DNA of 64,000 nucleotides from an uncultured Gammaproteobacteria bacterium. Lineage in GTDB: Bacteria > Patescibacteriota > Patescibacteriia > Buchananbacterales > UBA6539. A program made the position numbers and the translations under genes. Below are positions 13,378 to 50,401 of the stretch, in pieces (the first letter of the stretch is position 1; every line of letters begins with the position of its first letter). Under the pieces are notes generated by a model. That model was given only the letters and a program-made list of their open reading frames with translations, ran no database searches and was not told the origin of the DNA. The stretch lies in contig CAZINP010000001.1 of the NCBI GenBank assembly GCA_964540635.1, positions 9,540-73,539 on the forward strand, written 5' to 3'.

Positions 13378-13379
13378 GT

Positions 13380-18746: not shown

Positions 18747-21225
<2,479 letters not shown>

Positions 21226-21235
21226 AAATAAAACT

Positions 21236-21796: not shown

Positions 21797-21811
21797 CATC
21801 TTTTAATACCT

Positions 21812-22849: not shown

Positions 22850-22850
22850 T

Positions 22851-23168
22851 ATGGACTATAAAATTATTATCATCGGCAACGAAGACGCCATCACCGGCTT
22901 TAAGGCTATCGGCCTTGATACTTTTGGCGTTAAATCACAAGAAGACTGTGAAAAAAAGATTTCTGAAATATATGGCTCATCAGACTACGGCGTAATTTTT
23001 ATCACTGAGGACTGGGCCGACAAAGTAAAAATATTTTTAAGTCAATTGCCGCCCAAAGCCTTGCCGGCCATTGTTGCTGTTCCCTCTCAAGCCGGATCAA
23101 CCGGGGCCGGACTGGCTAATCTGAAAAAAATTGTTGAGCAGGCGGTGGGCTCAGATATTCTTTCTTAA
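22851..23168 (+). CDS. atpF: V/A-type ATPase subunit F
   Basis: 105 aa. IIIIGNEDAITGFKAIGLD is typical of subunit F. Confidence 0.8.
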   Translation: MDYKIIIIGNEDAITGFKAIGLDTFGVKSQEDCEKKISEIYGSSDYGVIFITEDWADKVKIFLSQLPPKALPAIVAVPSQAGSTGAGLANLKKIVEQAVGSDILS

Positions 23169-23201
23169 TTTTAAATATTAATCATAAAGATATTAAAAAA
23201 T

Positions 23202-24938: not shown

Positions 24939-24949
24939 ATAGAATTAAT

Positions 24950-26338: not shown

Positions 26339-26366
26339 ACCAAACGATAAATAACCATCAATTTTT

Positions 26367-26996
26367 GTGGCTAATAAACTCAACGTCAATCCAACCCGCC
26401 AAGAATTGCTTAAGCTTAAAGTCAAGCTTAAGACGATTCAGCGCGGTCATAAATTGCTCAAAGAAAAGCGAGACGGGCTGATGAAAAATTTCATGGCAAT
26501 CATTCGTCAAGCAAAAACTTTGCGAGAACAAATTGAACAAGACTTGGGCAAAGGTTTTTTCTCCTATGTTTTTTTCTCTTCAAAAATTCCAATGTCTGTT
26601 ATTAACGAATCATTGGCAGTCCCAACCAAAAAAGTAAGCTTGCAGGCTAAAACCAGAAATGTCATGGGTGTGGAAGTGCCGGAATTCGTTTACCAAGAAA
26701 ATGGTGATTTTATGTGTTATGATTTAGTTACCACCTCAACCAGTTTGGACAAAGCTTTAATCACTTTTTCGGAAGCGATAAAAAACATGGTTAAGCTAGC
26801 TGAAATTGAACACTCCGCAAAACTTTTGGCAACGGAAATTGAAAAAACCAGAAGGCGCGTTAATGCTTTGGAATATGTTTACATTCCCGATACGATTGAA
26901 ACTATCAAATATATCACCAGTAAACTCAACGAACAAGAACGAGGAACAATAATCACCTTAATGAAGGTCAAAGAATTAATCGCCGCTCAAGAATAA
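26367..26996 (+). CDS. atpD: V/A-type ATPase central stalk subunit D
   Basis: GTG start. Long coiled-coil helices (NPTRQELLKLKVKLKTIQRGHKLLKEKRDGL) are typical of subunit D. Confidence 0.8.
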   Translation: MANKLNVNPTRQELLKLKVKLKTIQRGHKLLKEKRDGLMKNFMAIIRQAKTLREQIEQDLGKGFFSYVFFSSKIPMSVINESLAVPTKKVSLQAKTRNVMGVEVPEFVYQENGDFMCYDLVTTSTSLDKALITFSEAIKNMVKLAEIEHSAKLLATEIEKTRRRVNALEYVYIPDTIETIKYITSKLNEQERGTIITLMKVKELIAAQE

Positions 26997-35509: not shown

Positions 35510-38119
35510 TTATTTTAATGATTTTAGCTGCTGATTAATTTTTTCTAAATTCTCCTGATTATCTTTCAGTTTCTGCTTTTCTATTTCAACAATTTCTTTT
35601 GGCGCTTTGGCCACAAATTTTTCATTGGTTAATTTTACCTCCAAATGATTAATAAAATCACTCAGCCTCTTTGCTTCTTCCTCAAGCCTGACTATTTCCT
35701 TTTTAATATCAATCATCCCGGCAACCGGCAAATAGACCTCAACCTTGGGTAAAATTAAGGAAAGAGATTCGGATGGCTTTTTACCCTTTGCCAAAACCTT
35801 TAATTCTTGAATTCTGGCTAAGGTTTCGATGATCGGCGCCTGCTCCTTAATAATTTTTTCATATTTGGAAGAAATTATCACGGCATTAATTTTTTGACCG
35901 GGCTGAATTCGGCTCTCTGATCTGAGATTTCTAATTCCCGAAACAATTTCTTGAATTAAAGAAAACTCCTGCTGAACTTTATTTTCGGGCTTGCCCTTGA
36001 ACGCCGGCCAAGACTGAACCATTAACAGCTCATCGGTATTTAATTGTTTCCAAATTTCTTCGGTAACAAACGGACAAAACGGATGCCAAAGTTTCAGCAA
36101 ATTTTGCAAGATGTATAATAATATCTCATCACTTGATTTGTCCTTGGAGTCAATTTTAGAAATCTCCAAATACCAATCGGCCAATTTTGACCAAGTAAAT
36201 TCATAAACCCTTTCTCCCACAATTGAAAAATTATACTTATCCAAATTTTCAGTCGCATATGAAACCAAAGAATGCAATTCCGCCAAAATCCACTTATCCG
36301 CCAAGGTTTTGGCTTTTGGTTCTTTTTCAACCAGCTTGACTTCTGGCACTTTCAAAAGAATATAACGAGAGATATTCCAAAGCTTATTGACAAAATTACG
36401 ATAGCCTTCAATCTTATTTTCCGAAACCGTGATGTCATTTCCCGGCGCCGTGCCGATAATTAGAGCCAGACGCGTCGCATCAGCGCCAAATTTATCAATT
36501 GCAATCAAAGGGTCAATGGCATTATCGGAAGATTTGCTCATCTTTTTACCTTTTTCATCTCTGACCATGCCGTGCAAATAAACTTGTTTAAACGGTATTT
36601 CCTCCAGCAAATAGGTAGACATGATAATCATTCTGGCAATCCAAAAAAATAAAATATCATACCCGGTCTCCATTAATGAAGTTGGATGAAAAGTTTTTAA
36701 ATCAGAAGTCTGTTTGGGCCAACCCAAAGTTGAAAAAGTCCAAAGGCCGGAAGAAAACCAAGTATCAAGTGTGTCATTGTCCTGAACCCAGCCCTCCCCG
36801 TCCGGTTTTTGGCGGCCGACAAAAATTTCTTCGCCTCTATACCAAACCGGAATTCTATGGCCAAACCAAATTTGCCTTGAAATACACCAGTCGCGAAGAT
36901 TTTCCATCCAATTAAAATACGTTTTTTCAAAACGATCGGGAATTATTTCAATCTCTTTTTCTCGAACGACTTCTAAACATTTTTCTTTGATTGATTTATT
37001 GCCGAATTTCTTTAATGGCAGATTAACATTAATAAACCACTGCTTAGAAATTAATGGCTCAATCACATGTTCGCAGCGATAACAAACCGACAAATTATTA
37101 TCAACCTCCTCAATCTTTGAAATCAAGCCGGCATTCTCCAAATCTTGAACAAACGCCTTGCGACATTCGACAACGGGCAAACCTGCATATGACCTGGCCT
37201 TATCGGTCATTTTTCCGTCTTCGCCGATTACCTGGATTAAAGGTAAATTATTTTTTTGCGCCATTTCAAAGTCAATCGCCGAATGAGCCGGCGTCACACC
37301 CAGCGCGCCGGTACCCAAATTTGGGTCAACCGAATCATCAGCAATCACCTTAACGTGAACATCAACCTTGCCCAAATTTACATCCATTTCCTGGCCGATA
37401 TATTTTTGATAGCGCGAATCGTTTGGGTTGACCGCCACAGCCGTATCACCAATTTTTGTTTCGGGTCTGGTGGTAGCCACAATAAACGGTCCATATTTGA
37501 TATAATAAAATTTTCCTTTCTGAGGTTGATATTCCACCTCGTCATCAGCCAAAGTTGAAGCGCAACGCGGGCACCAATTAACAATCCTGTAGCCCTGGTA
37601 AATCAAACCATCGTCATACATTCTAATAAACGCTTCATTAACCGCTTCTGACAAACCACTGTCCAGTGTATACCTTTCGCGCGACCAGTCGCAAGAAGAG
37701 CCCATCTTTTTCATTTGACCTCTTATGGTGCTGCGTGAATTTTCAACAAATTCGTCAACTCGTTTTAAAAATTCCTCGCGACCCAAATCGTGGCGCGACT
37801 TGCCTTCTTCTTTTTTAATTATTTTTTCCACCTTTGTCTGAGTGGCAATGGAAGCGTGATCGGTCCCGGGCAGCCAAAGAGTTTTTTTGCCCTTAAGGCG
37901 CTGGTAGCGAATAACCAAATCTTGAATGGCCAACATTACGGAATGGCCCAAATGCAACACGCCGGTAGCGTTTGGCGGCGGCAAAGAAATCGTAAATGCC
38001 TCATTGCGTTTACCGGGTAAGTTATCAGGATTAAAAAATCCGGACTCTTCCCACTTTTTGTAGATAGAGTCCTCTACGTTTTTAGGCTCATAGGCCTTGC
38101 TAATTTCAGAGTCTTTCAT
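35510..38119 (-). CDS. valS: Valyl-tRNA synthetase
   Basis: PPPNATGVLHLGHS (HIGH) and KMSKS motifs are present, with an editing domain and a C-terminal coiled coil. Confidence 0.9.
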   Translation of the reverse strand: MKDSEISKAYEPKNVEDSIYKKWEESGFFNPDNLPGKRNEAFTISLPPPNATGVLHLGHSVMLAIQDLVIRYQRLKGKKTLWLPGTDHASIATQTKVEKIIKKEEGKSRHDLGREEFLKRVDEFVENSRSTIRGQMKKMGSSCDWSRERYTLDSGLSEAVNEAFIRMYDDGLIYQGYRIVNWCPRCASTLADDEVEYQPQKGKFYYIKYGPFIVATTRPETKIGDTAVAVNPNDSRYQKYIGQEMDVNLGKVDVHVKVIADDSVDPNLGTGALGVTPAHSAIDFEMAQKNNLPLIQVIGEDGKMTDKARSYAGLPVVECRKAFVQDLENAGLISKIEEVDNNLSVCYRCEHVIEPLISKQWFINVNLPLKKFGNKSIKEKCLEVVREKEIEIIPDRFEKTYFNWMENLRDWCISRQIWFGHRIPVWYRGEEIFVGRQKPDGEGWVQDNDTLDTWFSSGLWTFSTLGWPKQTSDLKTFHPTSLMETGYDILFFWIARMIIMSTYLLEEIPFKQVYLHGMVRDEKGKKMSKSSDNAIDPLIAIDKFGADATRLALIIGTAPGNDITVSENKIEGYRNFVNKLWNISRYILLKVPEVKLVEKEPKAKTLADKWILAELHSLVSYATENLDKYNFSIVGERVYEFTWSKLADWYLEISKIDSKDKSSDEILLYILQNLLKLWHPFCPFVTEEIWKQLNTDELLMVQSWPAFKGKPENKVQQEFSLIQEIVSGIRNLRSESRIQPGQKINAVIISSKYEKIIKEQAPIIETLARIQELKVLAKGKKPSESLSLILPKVEVYLPVAGMIDIKKEIVRLEEEAKRLSDFINHLEVKLTNEKFVAKAPKEIVEIEKQKLKDNQENLEKINQQLKSLK

Positions 38120-38209: not shown

Positions 38210-38238
38210 TTGACAGCCCCAAAGAATACTATTAATAT
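38210..38238 (+). promoter_or_regulatory. Sigma70-type promoter for the DHH-family gene
   Basis: TTGACA, a 17-nt spacer and TAATAT. Confidence 0.5.
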
Positions 38239-38284: not shown

Positions 38285-39415
38285 ATGGCATTAAAAGAAA
38301 ACGAACAGATCATTTCGGCAATTGAAAATAGCCGCCATGTCTTAATTACATTCAAAAAAGATTACTCGGCCGACGCCCTATCAAGTGCGCTTGGGCTTTC
38401 TTTATTTTTAGAAAAGGAAGGGAAACTGGTTGACATTGCCTGTGACGATTTTAAAGCTTCTGCCAATTTTGATTTTTTAGGGAATATTGGAAAAGTTTTG
38501 GATAAAATTAACCATTTGCAGAAATTTGTTATCTCGCTGGATACAAGCGTAAATAAAATTGAAGAGTTCAGTTATAATTATGAAGGCGAACACCTCAAAA
38601 TTTATATTACGCCAAAGAACGGCGCCTTTAGCCGAGAAGACGTTTCCACCTCTCAAACCGATTATCGCTATGATTTGATAATTACTTTGGACACGCCCGA
38701 TCTTGATTCTCTGGGCAAAATTTACCAATCGTCCACGGATTTTTTCTTCAATACGACTATAATAAACATTGACAACAATCCTGAGAACGAACACTATGGA
38801 CAAATAAATTTGATAAACTTGAATGCGACTGCCAGTGCTGAAATTGTTTATGACCTTCTTAAAAATTGGAAGCCGGACTTGATTGATTCTAAAATCGCCA
38901 CGGCATTTTTGGCCGGCTTGATTGCCAAAACAAAAAGCTTTAAAACACCAAATGTCACTCCCAAAACCCTGGAAATTGCCGGCGAACTTTTAGCCGCCGA
39001 GGCTGATCGCGATTTGATTGTAAAAAAATTATATCGCAGCCGTTCACTTTCAACACTAAATTTGTGGGGCCGAGCTTTAGCGCGACTCAAAAGCCACGAC
39101 AACAACCGCTTAATTTGGTCTCTGATTACTGATAATGATTTTATTGAATCTCAATCAAACCCAGGCGAACTGCCGGAAGTGATTGAAGAATTAATTTCTT
39201 TTATCCCGGGAGTGGAAGCGGTAGTTTTGTTTTATCAGCAAGGACAAAATGTCTGCGTGATTATAAAAACCTTAAAAAATCATAATGCCTTGTACCTAGT
39301 CGGCAACTTTGAAGCTAAGGGCAACACAAACACCGCCGAGTTTTGTCTGGAAAACAAAAACCTGGTGGACGCCGAAAAAGAAGTAGTGGAAAATATCAAA
39401 GAAAAATTGAAGTAA
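38285..39415 (+). CDS. DHH/DHHA1-fold NrnA-like protein with degenerate catalytic motifs
   Basis: It is collinear with NrnA. Motif II (VISLDTS) is retained. The DHH motif reads IDNNPE and the DHHA1 GGGH is replaced by KGNTNT. Confidence 0.6.
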   Translation: MALKENEQIISAIENSRHVLITFKKDYSADALSSALGLSLFLEKEGKLVDIACDDFKASANFDFLGNIGKVLDKINHLQKFVISLDTSVNKIEEFSYNYEGEHLKIYITPKNGAFSREDVSTSQTDYRYDLIITLDTPDLDSLGKIYQSSTDFFFNTTIINIDNNPENEHYGQINLINLNATASAEIVYDLLKNWKPDLIDSKIATAFLAGLIAKTKSFKTPNVTPKTLEIAGELLAAEADRDLIVKKLYRSRSLSTLNLWGRALARLKSHDNNRLIWSLITDNDFIESQSNPGELPEVIEELISFIPGVEAVVLFYQQGQNVCVIIKTLKNHNALYLVGNFEAKGNTNTAEFCLENKNLVDAEKEVVENIKEKLK

Positions 39416-39544: not shown

Positions 39545-39621
39545 GCGCCTGTAGCTCAGTTGGTTAGAGCGCCACCCTTATAAGGTGGATGTCCCTGGTT
39601 CAAGTCCAGGCAGGCGCACCA
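39545..39621 (+). tRNA. tRNA-Ile, anticodon UAU (gene TAT)
   Basis: 77 nt cloverleaf with a 7-bp acceptor (GCGCCTG/CAGGCGC), anticodon stem CCACC/GGTGG, loop C-T-TAT-A-A and 3' CCA encoded. Confidence 0.8.
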
Positions 39622-39678: not shown

Positions 39679-39755
39679 GGGCGTATAGCTCAGTTGGTTA
39701 GAGCGTTACGTTGACATCGTAAAGGTCCATGGTTCGAGTCCATGTACGCCCACCA
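39679..39755 (+). tRNA. tRNA-Val (GAC)
   Basis: 77 nt with acceptor GGGCGTA/TACGCCC, anticodon stem TTACG/CGTAA, loop TT-GAC-AT and CCA encoded. Confidence 0.85.
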
Positions 39756-39863
39756 AAAAGCATCTCTTTTAGAGGTGTTTTTTGATTTATCATATATTTG
39801 ATTGAATTATATAAATCTTGACATTTTTACCAATATTGCATATTATAACTATATCAATATTAA

Positions 39864-40187
39864 TTGATATATATGAAACATAAATGTTGTTGCAATAAAT
39901 CGGATTTGCTGAATTTGAATAATTTGGCCGATTTCCTAAAAATTATTGCCGAACCAAACCGCTTAAAAATTTTATGCTTGCTGAAAAACGACAAGCGCTG
40001 TGTTTGTGAAATATGGCAAGCTTTAAATTTACCGCAAAATTTAATTTCAAGTCATTTAAAGATCTTGCGACAAGCCAAACTTATTGATTTTAAAAAAGAC
40101 GGTTTAAAAGTCTATTACTTTATCAATAAACAAAATATCAAAAAGCATAAATCATTATTAAATAAATTATTAAAATCATATGAATGA
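39864..40187 (+). CDS. ArsR/SmtB-family transcriptional regulator
   Basis: ArsR-type HTH (NRLKILCLLKNDKRCVCEIWQALNLPQNLISSHLKILRQAKLI). An N-terminal Cys cluster is present. Confidence 0.8.
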   Translation: MIYMKHKCCCNKSDLLNLNNLADFLKIIAEPNRLKILCLLKNDKRCVCEIWQALNLPQNLISSHLKILRQAKLIDFKKDGLKVYYFINKQNIKKHKSLLNKLLKSYE

Positions 40188-40488
40188 AAAAATTCAAAAA
40201 ATCCAAGTCTTGGGCGCCGGCTGCCCCAGCTGCAAAAAAATGTTTGAACTAACCAAACAAACCGCCCTTGAACTTGGCTTGAAAATTGAAGTTGAATATA
40301 TTACCGATATTACCGTGTTGGTTAAAATGGGTGTAATGTCCGCTCCGGCTTTGGCCATAAATGATAAATTGGTTTTTGCCGGCGCCTTGCCCAACAGTCA
40401 AAGAATAAAAGAACTGATTCAAAATTACGCCTTAAAACAAGAAGTTGAGAAGCCAAAGAGTAATTGTTCTTGCCACGGTTGTTGCTAA
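40180..40488 (+). CDS. Thioredoxin-fold 'redox-active disulfide protein 2' family protein
   Basis: IQVLGAGCPSCKKMFEL has a CxxC motif and follows the TIGR00412-like pattern. A C-terminal CSCHGCC tail is present. Confidence 0.7.
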   Translation: MNEKIQKIQVLGAGCPSCKKMFELTKQTALELGLKIEVEYITDITVLVKMGVMSAPALAINDKLVFAGALPNSQRIKELIQNYALKQEVEKPKSNCSCHGCC

Positions 40489-40495
40489 AAATTGT

Positions 40496-41467
40496 ATGGA
40501 TATTTTTTTTCCCCTTCAATCATTTGCCGATCTTTTTGTTTATAATCTTTTAGGTTTGAGCAAAGACTCCCATTTGGGCGAGGCTTTAAATTATTTTATT
40601 TATGATGTCATAAAAATAATCATCCTGCTTTTGATTGTTAATTATTTTATGGCAATTATAAGACACTATTTACCGGCCGAAAGACTGCGCAATTTTTTGG
40701 CTTCTCGGCGCTGGTTTGGATTTGACTATTTACTGGCCGCCTTATTTGGCACCATCACTCCTTTTTGTTCCTGTTCATCCATTCCCCTATTTATCGGTTT
40801 TATCAGTGCCGGCATTCCTTTGGGCGTGACTTTGTCATTCTTAATCACCTCGCCGCTGGTTAATGAGATAGCCATTGTACTTTTAATCGGATTGTTCGGC
40901 TGGAAAATTACTTTATACTATGTACTTGCCGCCATTGCTCTTGGCGTTTTGGGCGGTATGATTTTGAACAGATTAAAATTGGAAAAATACGTAGCCGAAG
41001 AGATTTGGAAAATCAAAAGTCAAAAACAAGAATTAATGATTGACAAGCTTAACCTAAAAACTTTGCTTAAAAAATTTTGGTCCGAGGGCTTTGAAATTAC
41101 CAAAAAAATAACACCTTATGTTATCTTGGGCATTGGGGCGGGTGCAGTCATACACGGTTTTGTTCCAAGCGGATTTTTTGAAAAATATCTCAATTCACAA
41201 AACTTATTAGCCGTTCCCGTGGCGGTTTTGGTGGGAGTGCCCCTGTATGCCGGCGCCGTGGGTGTAATTCCAATCGTTCAATCTCTGGTGGATAAAGGCG
41301 TGGCTTTAGGCACAGCCTTGGCTCTAATGATGGCCGTCGTCGGCCTATCGCTACCGGAAGCTTTAATTTTAAAAAAAGTAATGAAGCTGAAATTGCTTTT
41401 ATATTTTTTTGGCATCACCACCATCAATATAATTATTATCGGTTATTTATTTAACGCTTTAGCTTAA
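40496..41467 (+). CDS. DUF318/ArsP-like permease with TPFCSCSS motif
   Basis: A polytopic permease. TPFCSCSSIP is the hallmark of the COG0701/ArsP family. The start is taken at the ATG after the upstream stop. Confidence 0.7.
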   Translation: MDIFFPLQSFADLFVYNLLGLSKDSHLGEALNYFIYDVIKIIILLLIVNYFMAIIRHYLPAERLRNFLASRRWFGFDYLLAALFGTITPFCSCSSIPLFIGFISAGIPLGVTLSFLITSPLVNEIAIVLLIGLFGWKITLYYVLAAIALGVLGGMILNRLKLEKYVAEEIWKIKSQKQELMIDKLNLKTLLKKFWSEGFEITKKITPYVILGIGAGAVIHGFVPSGFFEKYLNSQNLLAVPVAVLVGVPLYAGAVGVIPIVQSLVDKGVALGTALALMMAVVGLSLPEALILKKVMKLKLLLYFFGITTINIIIIGYLFNALA

Positions 41468-41471
41468 AAAA

Positions 41472-41951
41472 ATGAAAAAAGAAATACTTATCGGCTCTGC
41501 CATTGGCACCACTTTAGTCATTATTATCGGCTTTGTTTTGATTTTACTTTCCTCTTTGGGGAATGAAGCAAAAAATAATCAAAATGATTTCGATCTTACT
41601 CAGAATCAAAACGCTCCCGCGGAAAAAATAGAAATTATTCACTTTCACGCAGCCCAGCAATGTTGGTCGTGCATTACCGTAGGCAATTATACCCTAAAAA
41701 CCATCCAAGAAAAATTTCCGGAAGAATACCAATCCGGAAAAATCACTTTCACCGATATTAACGTTGAATCACCTGAAAATAAAAATGTGGTTTTGAAATT
41801 TCGTGCCGCAGGATCATCCCTTTTTATCAATACCATTAGAGACGGTAAAGATAATATTTCCGAGGAAGTAACGGTTTGGCGTTTGGTTAATAATGAAAAA
41901 CAATTTATTGATTATTTTGAAAATAAAATTAAATCTTTATTGGGCAAATAA
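41472..41951 (+). CDS. Membrane-anchored thioredoxin-like CxxC protein
   Basis: An N-terminal transmembrane anchor is followed by a thioredoxin-like fold with a CWSC motif (HFHAAQQCWSCITVGN). Confidence 0.5.
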   Translation: MKKEILIGSAIGTTLVIIIGFVLILLSSLGNEAKNNQNDFDLTQNQNAPAEKIEIIHFHAAQQCWSCITVGNYTLKTIQEKFPEEYQSGKITFTDINVESPENKNVVLKFRAAGSSLFINTIRDGKDNISEEVTVWRLVNNEKQFIDYFENKIKSLLGK

Positions 41952-42674
41952 ATGGAAATCATTAATTTTTTAATTGATAATTACAACCTTCCGGCCTTAA
42001 GCGCCTTTTTACTTGGCATACTAACGGCCATCAGCCCTTGTCCTTTAGCAACCAATATTACAGCCATTGCCTATATTTCAAAAGAAATTAATAATACAAA
42101 AAAAATAATTCTCTCCGGGCTAACTTATACTCTGGGCCGAGCCATCACCTACACCCTTTTGGCCGTTTTATTGTTTTTCGGACTATCGTCCTTTGAAATG
42201 TCCAGACTGTTTCAAGGCTGGGGAAACAAAATCTTAGGTCCAATCTTGATTTTTATCGGCTTGGTTATGTTCGGGATAATAAAAATAAAAACAGGTAACC
42301 AAAATCAACGGCTGGAAAAAATTAAAACATGGTTGGCCCAAAAGGGTTATTTGGGTTCAATGCTTTTAGGTGGATTTTTCGCTTTGGCTTTCTGCCCCTA
42401 CAGCGCAGTTTTATTTTTTGGCGCACTTATGCCCATTGTTCTGAAATCAAACGGCGGTCTTTTACTGCCGATTGTTTTTGCCCTTGGAACCGGCTTACCT
42501 GTTATTGTTTTTGCCATTTTAATCGCTTACAGCCTGCAAAAAATGGGTAAGGTTTTCAAAGTTTTAACTGAATTGGAAAAATGGATTCGTTTTGCTATAG
42601 CTTTGATTTTTATTTTAATTGGAATTTATTATTCGCAAAATTTGTTTGATTATCTGTTGAAAATAATTTTATGA
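41952..42674 (+). CDS. ccdA: CcdA/DsbD-family cytochrome-c-biogenesis-type thiol-disulfide transporter
   Basis: Six transmembrane helices with ISPCPLATN and FCPYSAVLFFG Cys motifs. Confidence 0.8.
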   Translation: MEIINFLIDNYNLPALSAFLLGILTAISPCPLATNITAIAYISKEINNTKKIILSGLTYTLGRAITYTLLAVLLFFGLSSFEMSRLFQGWGNKILGPILIFIGLVMFGIIKIKTGNQNQRLEKIKTWLAQKGYLGSMLLGGFFALAFCPYSAVLFFGALMPIVLKSNGGLLLPIVFALGTGLPVIVFAILIAYSLQKMGKVFKVLTELEKWIRFAIALIFILIGIYYSQNLFDYLLKIIL

Positions 42675-43048
42675 ATACTAAAAAATTAATCATTGTCTGG
42701 CAACGACTTATTGTAAATGAAAAAACTGGCTTTCGCTGCGGCGCTACTGAAACCGAACTTTAAAAAGCCGTCAAACAACTTAAAAAGAAAATTAGTCCGA
42801 TGGGAATAGAGGTGATTCTAAAAAAATCAAAACTTGCACTAAAAAAATTTGAAAATAATCCGACAGAATCAAACAAAATCACAATAAATGACATACCATT
42901 GGAAAAATTAATTAATGCCAAAACCAAAACAAGCAGGTGCTGCGGCGCATGCAATGGCAATGAGTGTCGTACAATGGTAATAGACGGTCAATCTCAAGAA
43001 GTGATTAAAGCCGATGTGATAATTAAGGCGGGACTGAAAGCTTTATAG
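42671..43048 (+). pseudogene. DUF2703-like small CxxC protein interrupted by in-frame TAA at 42761-42763
   Basis: The full frame reads MNTKKLIIVWQRLIVNEKTGFRCGATETEL-*-KAVKQLKKKISPMGIEVILKK...SRCCGACNGNECRTMVIDGQ...ADVIIKAGLKAL. This matches DUF2703 (KKLxIxWQRLV...CPRCG...IEV...CC..C....CR.....G.....IPADVIIKAGL). The first Cys of CPRC is lost (GFRC). The ATG overlaps the ccdA stop (ATGA). Confidence 0.6.
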
Positions 43049-43074
43049 TTAAAATAATTTAAAAAAATAAAAAA

Positions 43075-43108
43075 GCGAGCGCTCGGCGTGAGGCTCGCCA
43101 CTGTTTTT
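43075..43108 (+). terminator. Rho-independent terminator
   Basis: The hairpin GCGAGC...GCTCGC is followed by CACTGTTTTT. Confidence 0.45.
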
Positions 43109-43128
43109 CACAAAGATCTTACCAGCCC

Positions 43129-44289
43129 CTACTCGGGCTGAATTTCAATCACTTCGCCACCGCCAAACTTGGAGTGGATTAAAACCGAAGGATTACGACC
43201 GGCTGGCGTGGGCAGAATCTTGCCGGCCACTTTTGCGGTTACACCAAACTTCACTGCCAAATGGCAGAATTGCGCAACGTCAGACTCATCAATGACAACC
43301 AGCATTCCCTGGCCGCAATTCCAGGTGTCGTAGCAGTCATTTACGGACATGCCACGCCAATCAGCGCAAAGCCGAACGATCTCCGGCGGCTCGAAAAGGT
43401 CGTCCAATATCGCCGAGAAACCCTGGGGAAAAAGAACGTCGCGGGCAAATTTGCTCTTGATTGAGCCGCCGGTAACGTGAGCAATCAAGTGCATCCTAAC
43501 CAGCGGCAGAAAGTCGGCTTCATACCAGCCGTGAAGCTTAGTCAAAAAGCAATCATACAAGAATGAGGGCACGGCAGCCGAACGAAGATGCTCCTTTGCC
43601 TCCGGCTCAATGGCCCAATTGTCGCCGAAACGCTTGGCAAAAGCTTTGCGCACAGAGCTGATGCCGTTGCTGCGAAACCCATTCTCTTGCAGAGCCACGA
43701 CAACTTGTCCGGGCGCCAAAGTGTCACCGAGAATCATTTTGTCCGGGTGGTAGGCACCGATTGCAAACCCGGACCAATTGTATTTTGCCGTAGCCGCCTC
43801 ATTGCTGGAACCAACACACACGCCAAGCTCGGCGGTTTCACCGCAAAGCATGACCATTTGGTTGTTGCCGCAAGCCACCATCAGGCCGTTAATCAACTGC
43901 CGAAAAGCCTGATTGGTTTGGTCTCCGGCTTGGCCAAGGGTGCAGACGTCCAAAACATTGCAGAAAACCAGAGGTATGCCACCCCAGCGCGTAATGTCAC
44001 CGGCCGTCATGGCCAGCACGTCTTTTCCGGAAGCAAAATGAAACCCTGCGGCATCAGAAATTATCACTTTGGTTCCGATTCCGTCCGGCGCACACGCCAA
44101 GCTACTGCCGGGCAGTAGGCCCTCAACGGTAAATCCACGAGGCCCGCGGAAGTGGCCACGAGAAAAATCATGGATCTTAACAAACGGGCTTGCCTCATAA
44201 GTTCCGCGGCAACACTTTGCCGCAAAGGCGCTAAAGCTATCGCCTTCTTTTACGTTTACACCATCCCGGGTGTAGGGATCATTGCTCAT
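43129..44289 (-). CDS. PurM-like (AIR synthase family) protein, GC-rich cassette
   Basis: PYTRDGVNV, DGIGTKV, CGETAE, SNGISSVRK, IAHVTGG and NCGQGM align to the PurM blocks. GC is about 55% in a roughly 40% GC genome. The start is taken at M28 of the track ORF. Confidence 0.7.
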   Translation of the reverse strand: MSNDPYTRDGVNVKEGDSFSAFAAKCCRGTYEASPFVKIHDFSRGHFRGPRGFTVEGLLPGSSLACAPDGIGTKVIISDAAGFHFASGKDVLAMTAGDITRWGGIPLVFCNVLDVCTLGQAGDQTNQAFRQLINGLMVACGNNQMVMLCGETAELGVCVGSSNEAATAKYNWSGFAIGAYHPDKMILGDTLAPGQVVVALQENGFRSNGISSVRKAFAKRFGDNWAIEPEAKEHLRSAAVPSFLYDCFLTKLHGWYEADFLPLVRMHLIAHVTGGSIKSKFARDVLFPQGFSAILDDLFEPPEIVRLCADWRGMSVNDCYDTWNCGQGMLVVIDESDVAQFCHLAVKFGVTAKVAGKILPTPAGRNPSVLIHSKFGGGEVIEIQPE

Positions 44290-44500
44290 TGTTTTCTCCT
44301 TTTCTGTAGTAGACAACACCGCCCACTTTTCTGGAAACAACCACCAAACGTTCTTTTTGAAGAGCCTCAATCGCTCTTTCCACCTCCTGGTGAGTACAAA
44401 AACCCAATGAGGCCGTTAGCGATCGCTTAAGAGCACAAACATTGCAGTCGCTGCTGTGCTCCAAAATCTTCAAAACTTCACCCTGTACATCCCTAGACAT
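44279..44500 (-). CDS. Small winged-helix-like protein, translationally coupled to the PurM-like gene
   Basis: 73 aa from the ATG at 44500, preceded by AAGGAAAGGAAA. The GC-rich part begins exactly here. The stop overlaps the PurM-like ATG (ATGAGCAATGA). Confidence 0.45.
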   Translation of the reverse strand: MSRDVQGEVLKILEHSSDCNVCALKRSLTASLGFCTHQEVERAIEALQKERLVVVSRKVGGVVYYRKGENNEQ

Positions 44501-44620: not shown

Positions 44621-46093
44621 ATGAAAACCAACTACGAAAAATCGTTTAAATTGTGGGAAAAACAGCCCTTTTTGAAGCGGCTTTTTTCTAAATATCCGAA
44701 AGCCAAGGCTTATTTGGTTGGCGGCGCCGTGCGCGATGCGATCCTAGAGAAACCAACAAAAGATTATGACTTTGTTATCGCCGGCCTGGAACCAAAGCTG
44801 TTGGAAAAATTTTTGCTTACCCAGGGCAAGGTTAATTTGGTTGGCAAACACTTTGGGGTTTTTAAATTTAAACCCAAGGGCTGGCAAGGGGAAGAAATTG
44901 ATATCGCCCTGCCACGAACCGAACACTCCATTGCTTTCAGCGGCGCTTACAAAGATTTTCTTGTTACCAGCGATCCCAATCTTAAAATAGAAGACGATCT
45001 TTCTCGTCGGGATTTTACAATTAATGCCACGGCTTGGGATTTGAAAGAAAAAAAATTGATTGATCCGTTTGGCGGCCTAAAAGATTTGCAAGGCGGAATT
45101 GTCAAAACTGTTGGCAAGCCCCAGGACAGATTTAAAGAAGATTACTCTCGCATGCTTCGCGCAATTCGTTTTGCCTGTCAACTTAATTTTGAAATTGAAA
45201 CCAGAACCTGGAGTGCCATTAAAAAAAATATAAAAAATTTAAACAAAAAAACCGGCGGCCAAAGAATCGTACCCCTTGAAGTGATTGCCAAAGAATTAAA
45301 CAAAGCTATAATCAATAATCCGATTTGGGCCATAGAACTCTTAGATCAAACCAAGACTATTGATCTGTTTTTCCCCGAACTGCTTAAGCAAAAAAAATGC
45401 CCTCAACCAAAAATTTTTCACAGCGAAGGTGATGCTTGGGCGCATATGATTATTGCTCTAGAAACCCTTTTTAGTAAAAATTTTACCAAAGAGTTTAAAA
45501 ACCAAAAGCCCACCCCTGAGGTTATTTGGGCAGTAATGTTTCATGATATCGGCAAGCCGTTTACCCTAACCATGTCAGATCGTATTCGTTTTAACAATCA
45601 CGACAATGTTTCCGTTAAACTTTGGCAAAAAATTTCAGACGACCTAAGGTTGTCTTCGGCCGGCCTAGACACCGATAAGGTTAAAAACTTAATTGGTAAA
45701 CACATGCTAACGATTCAGTCTCAGGTGATAAATATGAAAGATACCACCTTGGAAAAATACTTTTTTAACCCGCTTTTTCCGGGCGACGAATTAATGATGG
45801 TAATGTTTGCCGATATTTCCGCCACCATTCCGCCGTCAAACAAACCGGATTTTACCAGCTACAATCTACTTAAAAAAAGAATTGAAAAGCTGGGCCGTCA
45901 AGGAAAAAATAAAAAAACTTTGCCCAAGCCCTTTGTTGATGGCCACGATTTAATTAAAAATTTCAAACTTAAATCTAGCCCCCAGATTGGAATAATCCTA
46001 GAAATGCTGCGTGAGGCCCAATTGGCCCAAAAGATAAAAAATAAAACTCAAGGCTTAAAGTATGCCGGCCGATTTATTAAGAAAATCAAATGA
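44621..46093 (+). CDS. cca: CCA-adding tRNA nucleotidyltransferase with HD domain
   Basis: PolyA_pol head motif YLVGGAVRD and HD-domain motif MFHDIGKP are present. Confidence 0.8.
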   Translation: MKTNYEKSFKLWEKQPFLKRLFSKYPKAKAYLVGGAVRDAILEKPTKDYDFVIAGLEPKLLEKFLLTQGKVNLVGKHFGVFKFKPKGWQGEEIDIALPRTEHSIAFSGAYKDFLVTSDPNLKIEDDLSRRDFTINATAWDLKEKKLIDPFGGLKDLQGGIVKTVGKPQDRFKEDYSRMLRAIRFACQLNFEIETRTWSAIKKNIKNLNKKTGGQRIVPLEVIAKELNKAIINNPIWAIELLDQTKTIDLFFPELLKQKKCPQPKIFHSEGDAWAHMIIALETLFSKNFTKEFKNQKPTPEVIWAVMFHDIGKPFTLTMSDRIRFNNHDNVSVKLWQKISDDLRLSSAGLDTDKVKNLIGKHMLTIQSQVINMKDTTLEKYFFNPLFPGDELMMVMFADISATIPPSNKPDFTSYNLLKKRIEKLGRQGKNKKTLPKPFVDGHDLIKNFKLKSSPQIGIILEMLREAQLAQKIKNKTQGLKYAGRFIKKIK

Positions 46094-47079
46094 AAAAAAA
46101 CGAAATAACAATTGAACCGGAAAATAACGGCCAACGCCTGGATAAATTTTTGATTGAAATTCGTCCTGAGATTTCTCGCTCCCAAATCCAAAAGCTGATT
46201 AAGACCGGCCGCATTTTAGTCGAAAACAAACCCGCGAAAGTTCATCGATTTCTAAAAACCGGCGAAAAGGTGTCTTTAATTTTTGAAGAAAATAAACCTA
46301 AGGTTGAGGTAAAAAAAATTTCTCCGGTTCCGGCCGATAAAACCAAAGATTTATTGCCAAAAATAATTTTTGAAACCGATGATTATTTAATTTTGGAAAA
46401 ACCGGCCGGACTGCTGGTGCATGCCACGGAAAAAAATGAAAAAAATACTTTGGTTGATTGGTTATTAAATTACTACCCGCCAATAGAAAAAGTCGGTGAG
46501 GATAAGTATCGAGCCGGTATAATTCATCGCCTGGATAAAGATGTCTCCGGCATTATGGTGGTAGCCAAAAATAACAACGCCTACTTTCATCTTAAAGATC
46601 AATTTAAAGAAAGAAAGGTTAAAAAAGAATATCTGGCGCTTGTTTATGGCCGAATTAAAGATTTTGAAGGTGAAATTGATTTACCAATCGGCCGCAGCAA
46701 AGACGGGCAATTTGTTGCCCACCCCAAAAAGGGTTCTGAAAAATTTCAAGTTGAAGATCGTTGGGCAAAAACAAAATATAAAGTTATTGAATACATCAAA
46801 GACTATTCACTTTTGGAAGTAAAAATTTTAACCGGCAGAACTCACCAAATTCGCGTGCATCTCTCAGCTATTGGCCACCCGATTCTCGGTGATTTAATTT
46901 ACAAACCGAAAAAGAAATTTTTTCATTTATTTTCCAAAAAAATAAAAGTAATAGATCTGTCCAGAATATTCTTGCACTCAATAAAAATCGGATTTTTTGA
47001 TCTGAATGATAATTGGCAAGAATTCCAAAGCCAAGTTCCGGATGAACTAAAAAATTTTTTAGACACTCTTAAAAAATAA
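46090..47079 (+). CDS. rluD: RluA-family 23S rRNA pseudouridine synthase (RluD-like)
   Basis: S4 domain plus the catalytic HRLDKDVSGIMVVAKN motif. It overlaps the cca stop by 4 nt. Confidence 0.85.
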   Translation: MKKNEITIEPENNGQRLDKFLIEIRPEISRSQIQKLIKTGRILVENKPAKVHRFLKTGEKVSLIFEENKPKVEVKKISPVPADKTKDLLPKIIFETDDYLILEKPAGLLVHATEKNEKNTLVDWLLNYYPPIEKVGEDKYRAGIIHRLDKDVSGIMVVAKNNNAYFHLKDQFKERKVKKEYLALVYGRIKDFEGEIDLPIGRSKDGQFVAHPKKGSEKFQVEDRWAKTKYKVIEYIKDYSLLEVKILTGRTHQIRVHLSAIGHPILGDLIYKPKKKFFHLFSKKIKVIDLSRIFLHSIKIGFFDLNDNWQEFQSQVPDELKNFLDTLKK

Positions 47080-47088
47080 TGCCTTTAT

Positions 47089-47697
47089 ATGGCCAAGACC
47101 TTGAATAAAAAAAACGAACCGGAGATAAACGCCGGCATTTTTATAATTTCTGGGCCGTCGGGTGCGGGCGAAGATGCGGTAATCGATAGACTAAAAAAGA
47201 AAATCAAATTCAATACCGTAATTACCACTGTAACCAGAAAGAAAAGAAAGGGTGAGTCGCAAGGCAAACCATACTACTTTGTTTCCCAAGAAAAATTTAA
47301 AAAAATGTTGAAAGAAAAAATGTTTGTTGAATGGGCTTACGTTTACGGCTGCTATCGTGGCTGTACATATAAAGAAATTAAAAGATTAAAAACAGCCGGC
47401 AAACCCATAGTTTGGAAGGTTGACTGGAAAGGCGTTAAATCAATTAAAAAAATATTCCCTGGGGCCGTAGCCATATTTATTACCGTTCCTTCTTATCAAA
47501 TTTTAGTAAGACGATTGGAAAAACGCGGCCTTGATTCCAAGGAAACCATCAAAAAAAGGGAAAAATACACCAAGGATTGGTTAACCCAAAAAAAATTATA
47601 CGATTATACCGTAATAAACAGAGATAATCACCTGAACCAAGCCGTTGAAAAAATAGAGTCAATAATCAAAAAATCGATAAAAAGACTGGGCAAATAA
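47089..47697 (+). CDS. Guanylate-kinase-like protein with degenerate Walker A (GPSGAGED)
   Basis: Gmk-like blocks YYFVSQEKF and VDWKG are present with matching overall length. The P-loop Lys-Ser/Thr is replaced by Glu-Asp. Confidence 0.6.
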   Translation: MAKTLNKKNEPEINAGIFIISGPSGAGEDAVIDRLKKKIKFNTVITTVTRKKRKGESQGKPYYFVSQEKFKKMLKEKMFVEWAYVYGCYRGCTYKEIKRLKTAGKPIVWKVDWKGVKSIKKIFPGAVAIFITVPSYQILVRRLEKRGLDSKETIKKREKYTKDWLTQKKLYDYTVINRDNHLNQAVEKIESIIKKSIKRLGK

Positions 47698-47701
47698 ACT
47701 C

Positions 47702-47730
47702 TTGACTTTATTAGAGATTTCGTTTATAAT
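47702..47730 (+). promoter_or_regulatory. Sigma70 promoter upstream of rplS
   Basis: TTGACT, a 17-nt spacer and TATAAT. The leader contains a TTATCTctaacAGATAA hairpin. Confidence 0.55.
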
Positions 47731-47777
47731 CTAAAAGTGCTTTATCTCTAACAGATAAGTTATTTTATTACAATTTT

Positions 47778-48161
47778 ATGGCTAAAAAAGAAGTAAAAAA
47801 AGTTGACCATGGCGATAAGCTGGCCAAGAAAAAAATCGAAAAAGAGGAAATACCGGAAATTAAACCTGGCATGACCGTAAAGGTTCACCAAAAGATTACC
47901 GAAACCGGTCCTAAGGGCGAAAAACAGCGCATCCAGATTTTTGAAGGCATCATCATTGCTCATAAGCATGGAATGGAGCCGGGTGCGACCATCACCGTTA
48001 GGAAAATTTCTGAGGGAGTTGGCGTGGAAAAAATATTTCCCTTGCACTCACCCAACGTTATTAAGATTGAACCGATTAAACAAGCTAAGGTCAGAAAATC
48101 AAAACTCTACTATCTCAGAGACTATCGCAAACGCTTAAAAGAAAAGGCGATCAAAAAATAA
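47778..48161 (+). CDS. rplS: 50S ribosomal protein L19
   Basis: KPGMTVKVHQKI...RIQIFEGIIIAHKHG...ITVRKIS matches the L19 core. A Lys-rich N-terminal extension is present. Confidence 0.9.
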   Translation: MAKKEVKKVDHGDKLAKKKIEKEEIPEIKPGMTVKVHQKITETGPKGEKQRIQIFEGIIIAHKHGMEPGATITVRKISEGVGVEKIFPLHSPNVIKIEPIKQAKVRKSKLYYLRDYRKRLKEKAIKK

Positions 48162-48853: not shown

Positions 48854-50401
48854 ATGGACAACCCGGAGAAACAAGGTTATATACCAAGCCAAGAGCAGGA
48901 AAATGCAAACCAAGAAAAAAACGGATTTACTGAAAGCGTCAAAGCAATTGATGAGTTATATCAATTGGTTGTTGACGACGCAGATATGGAAGCAAATAAG
49001 GAAAAAATTCTTCAACTTACCGAAAGAATACTATCTGCATATAATGTATTGGATCATTTCAAAAGAGGTGATGAAGAAAAAGTGGAAGAAAACAATGTGA
49101 ATCCAGTTTCTCCTAAAATTCTGGAGCTACTCCCAACTCTTTCCAAAATGAAAGTAATTCATGGTGCGTTTTCAAAAAAAGATGAAAACGGGCAATCATT
49201 AATTGACAAAAATCCTCAATTAAATTTTTCAATCCGTTTGTTGGAAAGTGACATCAGATACATATTATATGATGGGATTTTACGTCTAGACAATAAAACT
49301 TTAACTGAAATTGATCCGCATCAAGCCAGGGATCTTCTTTTACTTCTTAGATTATCACTAGCCAAAGGCAATGACTCTGAGATAACTGATACGCTCAATT
49401 TTCTTAAAAATTATAAGAATTTATTTGAAAGACTCAATCAATCAAATGGTTCTTTGGAAATCGCAAATGAATATGCCAAACTTCAAGATTTCTTAGACAC
49501 CGAAGAATTTGCAAGAAACCTGATAAGATCATTACACTTTAAACAAACAACATCCAAATCAACTGACACATACCTTGAAAATCAAGAGGGACTCCTTGAA
49601 AGAATTTTTATCAAGTTCGGCCTGAAGCCTGAAGAATTTTATGACATCCTGGACGCATGGGATAGCTTCAATGACGAATCCCGTAAAGATAATATTTTAG
49701 AAGCAAACATGAATACAATCCTCGATTTGGAAAAAGCACGGCTCGGCATCATTGTATTGCTTTATAGAGAATTTGGCATTAGAAACTTTAATCGCTACCC
49801 AAAATCAATTTTAATTGCTCAATTTGACGAATTTAAAAATAATGAAAAGCCTTATGGAATAATCCTTCAGGCCACTCACGACTGGAATAGCGCTTTTTCT
49901 CACAACAATGATGTGTGGGAGGATTTATTCTCTCAAATTAAGGATCAATATGGCTTAAGAATTATTGAAGCCAAAAGCAGGACCGAAATTGCCAGGAATT
50001 TAATTAAACTTAACAGAAGATACGGAGCAAATCATAAAATATCTTTTGCGTTTATTGGTGGTCATGGCAGCAAAAATTCAATTACTCTCGGTAACGAGGA
50101 GGATGACTCTCGAATATTAATTGAAGATTTTTTAGGCAGAGGAGTAAAAAGATTAGGTAATTTTTTTGAACCGAACCCGACCATAGTCTTAAATTCATGT
50201 TCAACCGGAAAAATGGGCGGCATTGGTCAAAGGATGTCAGAAACATACGACACAAAAATAATTGCACCAAATATTCCCGCCTCTCTTAAGAAAATTAATG
50301 CCATAATTTCAAATGGAAATATTGATTTTGATATAAAGTATACAAAAAAAGGAAGAAACAAAAAAGTTGATCAAGCTTTTTCTTCCGGTAAAAAAATATA
50401 A
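48854..50401 (+). CDS. Hypothetical protein with N-terminal helical domain and C-terminal caspase-like (peptidase C14/CHAT-fold) candidate His-Cys dyad
   Basis: The C-terminal 200 aa follow caspase-fold topology: GIILQATHDW, then RIIEAKSRTEIARNLIKL, ISFAFIGGHGS, about 48 aa, then PTIVLNSCSTG. The His to Cys spacing is about 48 aa, as in caspases. The N-terminal 300 aa have no recognised domain. Confidence 0.4.
   Translation: MDNPEKQGYIPSQEQENANQEKNGFTESVKAIDELYQLVVDDADMEANKEKILQLTERILSAYNVLDHFKRGDEEKVEENNVNPVSPKILELLPTLSKMKVIHGAFSKKDENGQSLIDKNPQLNFSIRLLESDIRYILYDGILRLDNKTLTEIDPHQARDLLLLLRLSLAKGNDSEITDTLNFLKNYKNLFERLNQSNGSLEIANEYAKLQDFLDTEEFARNLIRSLHFKQTTSKSTDTYLENQEGLLERIFIKFGLKPEEFYDILDAWDSFNDESRKDNILEANMNTILDLEKARLGIIVLLYREFGIRNFNRYPKSILIAQFDEFKNNEKPYGIILQATHDWNSAFSHNNDVWEDLFSQIKDQYGLRIIEAKSRTEIARNLIKLNRRYGANHKISFAFIGGHGSKNSITLGNEEDDSRILIEDFLGRGVKRLGNFFEPNPTIVLNSCSTGKMGGIGQRMSETYDTKIIAPNIPASLKKINAIISNGNIDFDIKYTKKGRNKKVDQAFSSGKKI

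Follow-up and report, generated by a model that had tools for sequence, protein, structure and literature searches.

The closest described relatives of the protein treated here are the stand-alone DHH-DHHA1 enzymes of the NrnA type. DHH enzymes work with two metal ions that are held by Asp and His residues of their conserved motifs. In Bacillus subtilis NrnA the active site is made up of H20, D24, D26, D80, H103, H104 and D156, and the DHHA1 domain carries the substrate-recognition motifs GGGH-x-x-ASG and RxRxR (PMC9757072). The D80N/D156N form of this enzyme has no detectable RNase activity and still binds dinucleotides with divalent metals (PMC9757072). Likewise, the D80N/D154N form of the Thermotoga maritima phosphoesterase TmPDE is called inactive in PDB entry titles and was the form used for substrate complexes. 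The gene analysed in this work lies in a 64,000-nucleotide stretch of DNA (the window) from an assembly deposited as an uncultured Gammaproteobacteria bacterium, and encodes an NrnA-like protein of 376 amino acids in which five of the seven active-site residues are replaced. Judging from the residues lost, we lean to the view that it is a selected, non-hydrolytic paralog of NrnA, i.e. a putative pseudo-phosphoesterase. The gene and the relevant segments of its product are as follows (plus strand throughout).

38285-39415, plus strand: degenerate NrnA-like DHH/DHHA1 gene, 376 amino acids, stop codon included (open reading frame, Pfam DHH, sequence matches to NrnA and TmPDE in the PDB, AlphaFold2 and Foldseek)
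38351-38392, plus strand: degenerate motif I, residues 23-36, FKKDYSADALSSAL (hhalign)
38513-38662, plus strand: family-specific insert of about 50 residues, residues ~77-126 (hhalign gap against canonical NrnA; DSSP strands)
38669-38701, plus strand: true motif II, residues 129-139, YDLIITLDTPD (aligned to TmPDE and canonical paralogs)
38762-38803, plus strand: motif III, residues 160-173, INIDNNPENEHYGQ, with DHH replaced by D163-N164-N165 (alignment and residue census)
38915-38944, plus strand: motif IV, residues 211-220, GLIAKTKSFK (hhalign)
39254-39277, plus strand: DHHA1 strand equivalent to RxRxR, residues 324-331, CVIIKTLK (alignment)
39311-39328, plus strand: GGGH equivalent, residues 343-348, EAKGNT (alignment)

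The open reading frame (ORF) is intact and full-length, without a frameshift. Its start codon is backed by the family consensus MAL.E.QQI, in which M1 and L3 are nearly invariant in an alignment of 72 family sequences.

A preliminary description of this DNA, made from the letters alone, had called the product an NrnA-like DHH protein with a retained fold, and both statements are borne out. The Pfam DHH family (PF01368) matches residues 20-211 with E=4.9e-8 and 33.7 bits, barely above the gathering cutoff of 28.1. Among PDB sequences phmmer finds Staphylococcus aureus NrnA/Pde2 (8IU7, E=2e-17) and, further, SH1221, TmPDE, B. subtilis NrnA and Rv2837c, and a profile search of PDB sequences reaches E=4e-31. 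Pfam gives no match to DHHA1 (PF02272) at E≤1 in the query protein. Residues ~260-376 align with the DHHA1 domains of TmPDE and NrnA and the whole chain matches DHH-DHHA1 structures, i.e. the DHHA1 domain is there at the level of the fold and is degenerate at the level of the sequence.

The AlphaFold2 model, built with the family alignment, has a mean predicted local distance difference test (pLDDT) score of 90.1, a predicted TM-score (pTM) of 0.70 and no disordered segment. The best Foldseek match in the PDB is TmPDE (E=1e-28, TM-score 0.80 normalised to the target), and the top NrnA-type matches (TmPDE, S. aureus NrnA, Rv2837c and B. subtilis NrnA) span E-values of 1e-28 to 1e-21. Mycobacterium smegmatis NrnA, the RecJ-like protein of Deinococcus radiodurans, Bacteroides fragilis Nrn, Borrelia DhhP and the catalytic domain of GdpP are also matched. 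Family II pyrophosphatases and RecJ/Cdc45 follow far lower in the ranking. Structures of the RecJ/Cdc45 type (E~1e-9, TM-score normalised to the query 0.44) rank below all NrnA, GdpP and family II pyrophosphatase structures, and the 376-residue chain has no extra domains by Pfam, so that it does not group with the RecJ/Cdc45 branch. The predicted fold is thus that of a stand-alone, two-lobed DHH-DHHA1 protein of the NrnA type.

Residue equivalences were established by profile-profile alignment (hhalign) of the 72-sequence family alignment with eight canonical NrnA paralogs from related genomes of the Candidate Phyla Radiation (CPR); the two match with a probability of 100%, E=1.2e-50 and 26% identity. 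The seven active-site residues of B. subtilis NrnA correspond to K24, S28, D30, D136, N164, N165 and K215 of the query, i.e. two of the seven (D30 and D136) are kept. The earlier remark that motif I is degraded is correct: H20 is replaced by K24 and the first Asp, D24, by S28, and the second Asp (D26) is kept as D30. The reported change of DHH to DNN is equally clear when IDNNPENEHYGQI is laid over IDHHP..YG of NrnA, both His being replaced by Asn (N164 and N165); in the phmmer alignment the query has INIDNNPENEHYG over IKIDHHPAVDQYG. The GGGH motif, described as replaced, reads A344-K345-G346-N347. Here G346-N347-T348 stands over G-H-K of GGGGHK, so that the last Gly is kept, the His has become N347 and the next Lys T348, in keeping with the missing Pfam DHHA1 match.

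Three features go beyond the preliminary description, namely the replacement of the motif IV Asp by Lys215, the degradation of RxRxR and the insert of about 50 residues. In motif IV the query has GLIAKTKSF against the canonical GIxTDTGxF, with K215 in place of the Asp (D156) and K217 in place of the Gly, and K220 follows; a basic patch thus occupies the place of an acidic metal ligand. The three basic positions of RxRxR correspond to C324, I326 and K328; two of them are lost, and the position of K328 is variable in the family. By none of the active-site residues, the DHHA1 motifs or the equivalog score does the query qualify as NrnA, the NCBIfam NrnA equivalog (NF053633) giving 29.1 bits against a cutoff of 350, and no other NCBIfam model matches it.

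Two earlier statements hold in part, i.e. that motif II is kept as VISLDTS and that the alignment to NrnA is collinear. The motif II Asp is indeed kept, as D136 in YDLIITLD136TPD, but VISLD86TS lies within the insert, and this insert interrupts an alignment that is otherwise collinear. In the initial phmmer comparison both VISLD86TS and LIITLD136TPD were aligned to the same motif II of TmPDE; the profile-profile alignment settled this ambiguity and, together with the conservation in canonical relatives (Asp at position 136 in 9 of 9 fully canonical ones), rules out VISLDTS as motif II. The insert is located in the DHH lobe and contains predicted beta strands at residues 81-85, 92-100, 103-110 and 120-124 (DSSP on the AlphaFold2 model).

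The protein belongs to a large family. A word-indexed search returned 1,045 homologs. Identity to the query is 45-100% in the top 120, of which about 110 are 372-395 amino acids long, and those with a named source come from Patescibacteria or Candidatus Buchananbacteria. A profile was also run exhaustively against 1.84 billion cluster representatives; 16,322 of them match at E<1e-3, the matches at E<1e-30 number 3,552 (50%-identity clusters), and the top 150 all score above 360 bits. When one genome per GTDB species was scanned, at least 530 genomes were found to encode a relative. The named lineages among the relatives are Buchanan-, Uhr-, Falkow-, Magasanik-, Kerfeld- and Veblenbacteria.

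The residues at the active-site positions were counted in the best 80 species-representative orthologs and, for wider sets, in 120 close homologs and 269 sequences. It is conspicuous that several catalytic residues are absent from the whole sample: there is no His at position 24 (H20) and none at position 347 (the His of GGGH), and no Asp at position 215 (D156), where 65 of the 80 orthologs have Lys and the states are K, A, G and N. Asp at position 28 (D24) is found in four orthologs and His at position 165 (H104), where S, N, T, H, D, Q and K occur, in ten. The first His of DHH (position 164, H103; states H, N, S, A, C and Y) is retained in 71 of the 80. Asn at this position is scattered over 32 of the 269 sequences, in which S, A, C and Y are seen as well, and the query's six closest homologs have N, S or A there (N164/N165 in P0002, which is 79% identical; S or A in P0003-P0006). 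Since this His was lost repeatedly, also in the closest relatives of the query, even the last metal-ligand His is dispensable. Position 136 (D80) is Gly in 26 of the 80 and Asp in about two-thirds of the members. Conserved positions are D30 (D26; Asp in 80/80 species representatives and 259/269 sequences) and D163 (D102; 79/80), and the insert is present in all 80 orthologs. Invariant residues of the 72-sequence alignment include D30, N161, D163, N168, E169, G172, T216 and S218. The positions of the cleft-lining motifs are among the most conserved in the protein, which suggests that the cleft is still a working site. The possibility raised beforehand, that orthologs retain DHH and GGGH, is not what we see, given the counts of 0/80 for the GGGH His, 0/80 for the motif IV Asp and 10/80 for the second DHH His.

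In the databases, members of the family are labelled "DHH family phosphoesterase". Some of them (P0023, P0074 and P0120) are named "nanoRNase/pAp phosphatase (c-di-AMP/oligoRNAs hydrolase)" or "bifunctional oligoribonuclease and PAP phosphatase NrnA". From the motifs, this naming of degenerate members is probably over-annotation, which can mislead reconstructions of nanoRNA, pAp (3'-phosphoadenosine 5'-phosphate) and c-di-AMP (cyclic di-AMP) turnover in CPR genomes. A labelling matter of another kind is that many records of metagenome-assembled genomes with a Patescibacteria-type locus (e.g. L011, L012 and L048, the last being OZ246408.1) are titled "uncultured Gammaproteobacteria bacterium"; on these Third Party Annotation (TPA) assemblies the title looks like a default or incorrect label.

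The selection acting on the gene was estimated against the closest relative with available DNA (L087, 79% amino acid identity). The ratio of nonsynonymous to synonymous rates (dN/dS) is 0.061, as compared with 0.056 for valyl-tRNA synthetase (ValRS) and 0.027 for tyrosyl-tRNA synthetase (TyrRS) of the same genome pair; the ratios are approximate because dS is saturated in this comparison. In the 25 genomes that have all three genes, the mean identity to the proteins of the window is 49.4% for the NrnA-like protein, 57.9% for ValRS and 53.3% for TyrRS, and the identities of the NrnA-like protein correlate with those of ValRS (r = 0.87) and TyrRS (r = 0.78). As dN/dS is near that of ValRS and divergence near that of TyrRS, the NrnA-like protein is constrained about as strongly as essential housekeeping enzymes. 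CPR genomes are very small, so a protein that is present in at least 530 species and is constrained about like the neighbouring aminoacyl-tRNA synthetases is very likely important.

A search for a second, intact DHH gene had been proposed, and such a gene was found in relatives and not in the window. In 8 of the 80 species loci the family hidden Markov model (HMM) detects a second DHH-family ORF, located 2-6 kb upstream on the opposite strand and not adjacent to the first. These ORFs encode ~323 amino acids with intact DHH, DTG, the S-L/F-R-T-T/V motif and GGGGHKKAAGF, without the insert (e.g. L071:2083-3051 and L059:4518-5483). Since an intact NrnA is encoded within 6 kb, the degenerate form is, at least in these eight genomes, a paralog that exists beside a bona fide NrnA. 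The canonical paralogs are part of a very large Patescibacteria group with Pfam DHH and DHHA1 matches, many of them named NrnA (P0270-P0389). In the 64-kb window no other DHH gene was detected by the family HMM, which is blind to RecJ (it missed the RecJ of L085), and Pfam finds neither DHH nor RecJ in 20 further large ORFs of the window. Moreover, no named Buchananbacteria occur among the top 120 canonical NrnA matches.

The canonical and the degenerate CPR forms share the lineage-specific signature LxLWGRALxRL, which the enzymes of S. aureus and T. maritima lack. Nine of the 269 sequences (P0217, P0233, P0235, P0214, P0253, P0258, P0252, P0238 and P0267; 454-662 amino acids) keep all eight canonical residues, and six more keep six of the eight. 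The nine long forms bear the insert, have a Pfam DHHA1 match, are 34-39% identical to the query and align end to end with the family profile, insert included, at above 360 bits. A neighbour-joining tree was calculated without the catalytic columns, with the canonical paralogs that lack the insert as its root. In this tree the canonical long forms branch first, a mixed clade with 5-8 of the eight residues follows, and all short degenerate forms are nested inside; the tree is rough and carries no support values. Intact NrnA, insert-bearing forms that are still intact, partly degraded forms and finally fully degraded ones, in which Lys has taken the place of Asp, make up a natural series for studying how the cleft of a two-metal phosphoesterase is repurposed. 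The canonical long forms were rejected as positional orthologs, as the two examined are not beside valS.

Two observations concern the intact relatives themselves. The long intact forms (P0217, P0233, P0235, P0238, P0252, P0258 and others) have C-terminal tails of ~80-290 residues that are of low complexity, look disordered and are rich in Pro, Glu, Lys and Gln. The tails are absent from the short degenerate forms, so that tail loss and catalytic loss coincide in the sample; a functional fused domain was ruled out by the low-complexity sequence and the lack of a Pfam match. Besides, five of the eight canonical CPR NrnA paralogs (L054, L059, L061, L072 and L075) have H-K-(N/D)-C-G-D as motif I and not H-x-x-x-D-G-D, i.e. 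they lack the first Asp of the motif, are shorter there by one residue and have a Cys close by, and their DHH, DTG and GGGGH are intact. Judged by its sequence, such a motif I may form an altered metal-1 site in enzymes that are canonical in other respects.

The genes and signals that flank the NrnA-like gene in the window are listed below.

35510-38119, minus strand: valS, valyl-tRNA synthetase, divergent neighbour (Pfam)
38210-38238, plus strand: sigma70-like match TTGACA-17-TAATAT, 10 of 12 consensus positions, within the 165-nt spacer to the divergent valS
39545-39621, plus strand: tRNA-Ile, anticodon UAU (ARAGORN; Rfam 75.6 bits)
39679-39755, plus strand: tRNA-Val, anticodon GAC (ARAGORN, Rfam)

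The sigma70-like promoter previously ascribed to the gene is present as a TTGACA-17-TAATAT match 47 nt 5' of the ATG. Its standing as the gene's own promoter is less certain, as it is a consensus match without functional evidence and the AT-rich spacer between valS and the DHH-like gene holds about twice as many sigma70-like matches as expected from shuffling. Of 74 orthologous loci, 48 have a loose -35/-10 pattern upstream. In the flanking spacers, where T-box and other regulatory RNAs were looked for, the Rfam hits above the gathering score are the two tRNAs only.

The valS gene is upstream and divergent in 46 of the 64 loci with enough upstream DNA, and directly adjacent in 36; beyond it the window contains tyrS and a response regulator. 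On the other side, the tRNA-Ile(UAU)/tRNA-Val(GAC) pair is followed by a terminator-like hairpin at 39754-39784. Up to 27 of 69 loci have the same two tRNAs within 1.2 kb downstream; 20 of the pairs share the strand of the gene and 4 are on the other strand. Most bacteria decode AUA by a lysidine-modified CAU tRNA, and the conserved tRNA-Ile(UAU) may point to tilS-independent AUA decoding in this lineage. A block of cca, rluD-like, gmk and rplS genes follows at 44621-48161. In the relative L001 (58% identical) cca and its neighbours come directly after the DHH-like gene, and a CCA-adding enzyme homolog lies downstream on the same strand in 12 of 58 loci. Other genes recurring in the loci are argS (27/80), a tetratricopeptide repeat (TPR) protein (21/80) and an RluD-type pseudouridine synthase (11/80). 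A fusion of DHH-DHHA1 with a CCA-adding enzyme is mentioned in PMC9757072, which is a weak hint of a Rosetta-stone link to cca. Taken together, the valS/tRNA/cca/rluD neighbourhood weakly suggests a housekeeping role in RNA or tRNA metabolism.

Some other parts of the window deserve a note. Between the DHH-like gene with its tRNAs and the cca-rluD-like-gmk-rplS block, the region 39864-44370 encodes an ArsR regulator, a thioredoxin-like protein, an ArsP-type permease, a 159-amino-acid protein without a Pfam match and a DsbD_2 membrane protein, after which comes an AIRS_C gene on the minus strand; by its appearance this region is a redox/metalloid-handling cassette that was inserted in this lineage specifically. 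Two tandem genes of the Na+/Ca2+ exchanger family are found at 12406-14339 (plus strand), and beside them a P-type cation ATPase (15087-17540) and a sulfatase-domain protein (10429-12387). Products of 159-515 amino acids without a Pfam match at E≤1e-5 are encoded at 3786-5099 (minus), 48854-50401 (plus), 50711-51958 (minus), 57284-58129 (minus) and 41472-41951 (plus). The window also carries a V/A-type ATPase cluster at 18747-26996 (plus strand), in what is apparently a Patescibacteria genome, with these subunits assigned by Pfam:

18747-20708, plus strand: V/A-type ATPase subunit I
21812-22849, plus strand: V/A-type ATPase subunit C/AC39
23202-24938, plus strand: V/A-type ATPase subunit A
24950-26338, plus strand: V/A-type ATPase subunit B

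The proposal that the gene encodes a likely pseudo-phosphoesterase fits the homology and fold, the consistent loss of catalytic residues in the orthologs, the purifying selection together with the presence in at least 530 species genomes, and the intact paralog nearby in relatives; the loss of activity itself is predicted from residues, by comparison with the D80N/D156N form of B. subtilis NrnA that lacks RNase activity (PMC9757072). Mechanistically, hydrolysis with two metals would be gone, the metal-1 ligands having been exchanged for Lys and Ser and the Asp that serves as a metal-2 ligand for Lys215. The amine of Lys215 may fill the former metal-2 site against D30, D136 and D163, and the cleft would have switched from an acidic, metal-binding one to a basic one (K24, K215, K217 and K220). 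Such a cleft would most likely bind an anionic or phosphorylated ligand without cleaving it, e.g. a short RNA, a nucleotide or a tRNA-related substrate, and a protein partner is also conceivable. As for the specific role, that of an RNA or nucleotide binder in tRNA/RNA housekeeping is a tentative suggestion, to which we give well under half of our confidence.

Several points weigh against this reading. The inactivity is deduced from the loss of residues, while D30, D136 and D163 remain, and in most orthologs the first DHH His as well, so that a single metal site or a non-canonical activity is conceivable; the case for residual activity would be stronger if the source genome had no intact NrnA, Orn or NrnC elsewhere. 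With its DHHA1 recognition elements degraded, the protein is not expected to bind nanoRNA in the canonical way. The synteny with valS, tyrS and the tRNAs may be inherited gene order, the adjacency of tyrS and valS being similarly conserved, and the cca link is found in just 12 of the 58 loci.

The alternatives differ mainly in what they make of the conserved cleft. If the protein were still an enzyme, it would be a divergent phosphoesterase with non-canonical chemistry, e.g. with one metal held by D30, D136 and D163 (plus His or Asn164) and a transition state stabilised by Lys215, Lys217 and Lys220; the substrate would perhaps be new, and the insert might select it. The near-invariance of D30 and D163, the Asp at position 136 in about two-thirds of the members and H164 in 71 of 80 agree with this, as do the highly conserved cleft-lining motifs, a constraint equal to that of essential enzymes, and the lack of a canonical NrnA in the 64-kb window and of named Buchananbacteria among the top 120 canonical matches. 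However, the query retains only two of the seven active-site residues and has no GGGH His, and positions 164, 165, 136 and 215 vary freely although they would be essential in any shared mechanism. D80N/D156N abolishes the activity of B. subtilis NrnA (PMC9757072), and the intact NrnA nearby in eight relatives indicates that the activity is not needed there. We consider a surviving enzymatic function unlikely. About equally small is the chance that the protein has no small ligand of its own and acts as a regulatory or scaffolding subunit, in a heterodimer with canonical NrnA or another DHH enzyme that it would tune or localise, which is a role known from many pseudoenzyme paralogs. NrnA-type enzymes are described as dimers through the DHH domain (PMC4081065), and the insert sits in the DHH lobe, which is the dimer interface in known NrnA, so that it could make or break a heterodimeric pairing. 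The LxLWGRALxRL signature common to the degenerate family and canonical CPR NrnA, and the occurrence of both genes within 2-6 kb in 8 of 80 loci, are in favour of such a partnership; yet in those eight loci the genes are on opposite strands and not adjacent, and the usual conserved neighbour is valS and not nrnA.

If the gene were a pseudogene in decay, or a normal nrnA distorted by sequencing or assembly, this would also explain the lost catalytic motifs, a Pfam DHH score barely above threshold and the missing DHHA1 match. This explanation has a negligible probability: the ORF is full-length (376 amino acids) without a frameshift, the same substitutions occur in hundreds of independent assemblies (NCBI, JGI, ENA and Logan), and the dN/dS of 0.06, the confident structure prediction and the conserved synteny all speak for a maintained gene. 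Local mutation, sequencing noise and pseudogene formation are thus ruled out by the recurrent substitutions, the dN/dS value and the 80-ortholog census.

A more specific version of the non-catalytic reading is that of a Patescibacteria-specific RNA-binding factor, derived from NrnA and working with the translation apparatus, e.g. as a tRNA-binding or tRNA-presenting cofactor that acts in trans on ValRS or the CCA-adding enzyme, comparable to the DHHA1-fold C-Ala domain of alanyl-tRNA synthetase. The lysine-rich cleft and the ~50-residue beta insert would then form a new RNA-binding surface. The gene order valS/gene/tRNA-Ile(UAU)/tRNA-Val(GAC)/cca/rluD is compatible with this idea and does not demonstrate it, and we hold the idea to be quite improbable in this specific form. 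Should the partner prove to be a tRNA or an aminoacyl-tRNA synthetase, this would add a new accessory factor to the translation system of the CPR. Nevertheless, what the present evidence supports well is a pseudoenzyme, and not a new type of system.

A full-text literature search found no description of degenerate NrnA-like proteins in CPR/Patescibacteria. The query has the same fold and domain order as NrnA and the other stand-alone DHH-DHHA1 enzymes (B. subtilis 5IPP/5J21, S. aureus 8IU7, TmPDE 5O25 and Mycobacterium tuberculosis CnpB/Rv2837c 5JJU), and it keeps the motif II Asp, the second motif I Asp, the DHH Asp, the Thr and Phe of motif IV and the last Gly of GGGH. Unlike them, it has only two of the seven active-site residues, no GGGH His and little of RxRxR, carries Lys for Asp in motif IV, and has an extra beta insert of about 50 residues, which is placed between the second strand region and motif II. 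As active-site and DHHA1 residues are lost and the equivalog score is 29 bits against 350, hydrolysis of nanoRNA, pAp or c-di-AMP is not expected of it.

The closest intact relative is the canonical Patescibacteria NrnA of ~323 amino acids, which has the LxLWGRALxRL signature in common with the query family and is encoded by the same genomes, in eight loci at most 6 kb away; unlike the query it has intact motifs, no insert and, in most lineages, a different neighbourhood. The insert-bearing intact long forms belong to the same subfamily as the query and have its insert, but they retain the eight canonical residues, match Pfam DHHA1 and carry C-terminal tails.

That a protein of the DHH fold can lose catalysis and still have an essential, non-enzymatic role is known from Cdc45 (PMC4873980). 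Cdc45 is eukaryotic, descends from RecJ, has extra domains and serves as a helicase cofactor, whereas the query is NrnA-type, bacterial and stand-alone. The C-Ala domain of alanyl-tRNA synthetase is a non-catalytic module with the DHHA1 fold that binds tRNA. It offers a possible analogy to a gene that lies between valS and tRNA genes, with the difference that C-Ala is a single fused domain and the query a stand-alone DHH plus DHHA1 protein.

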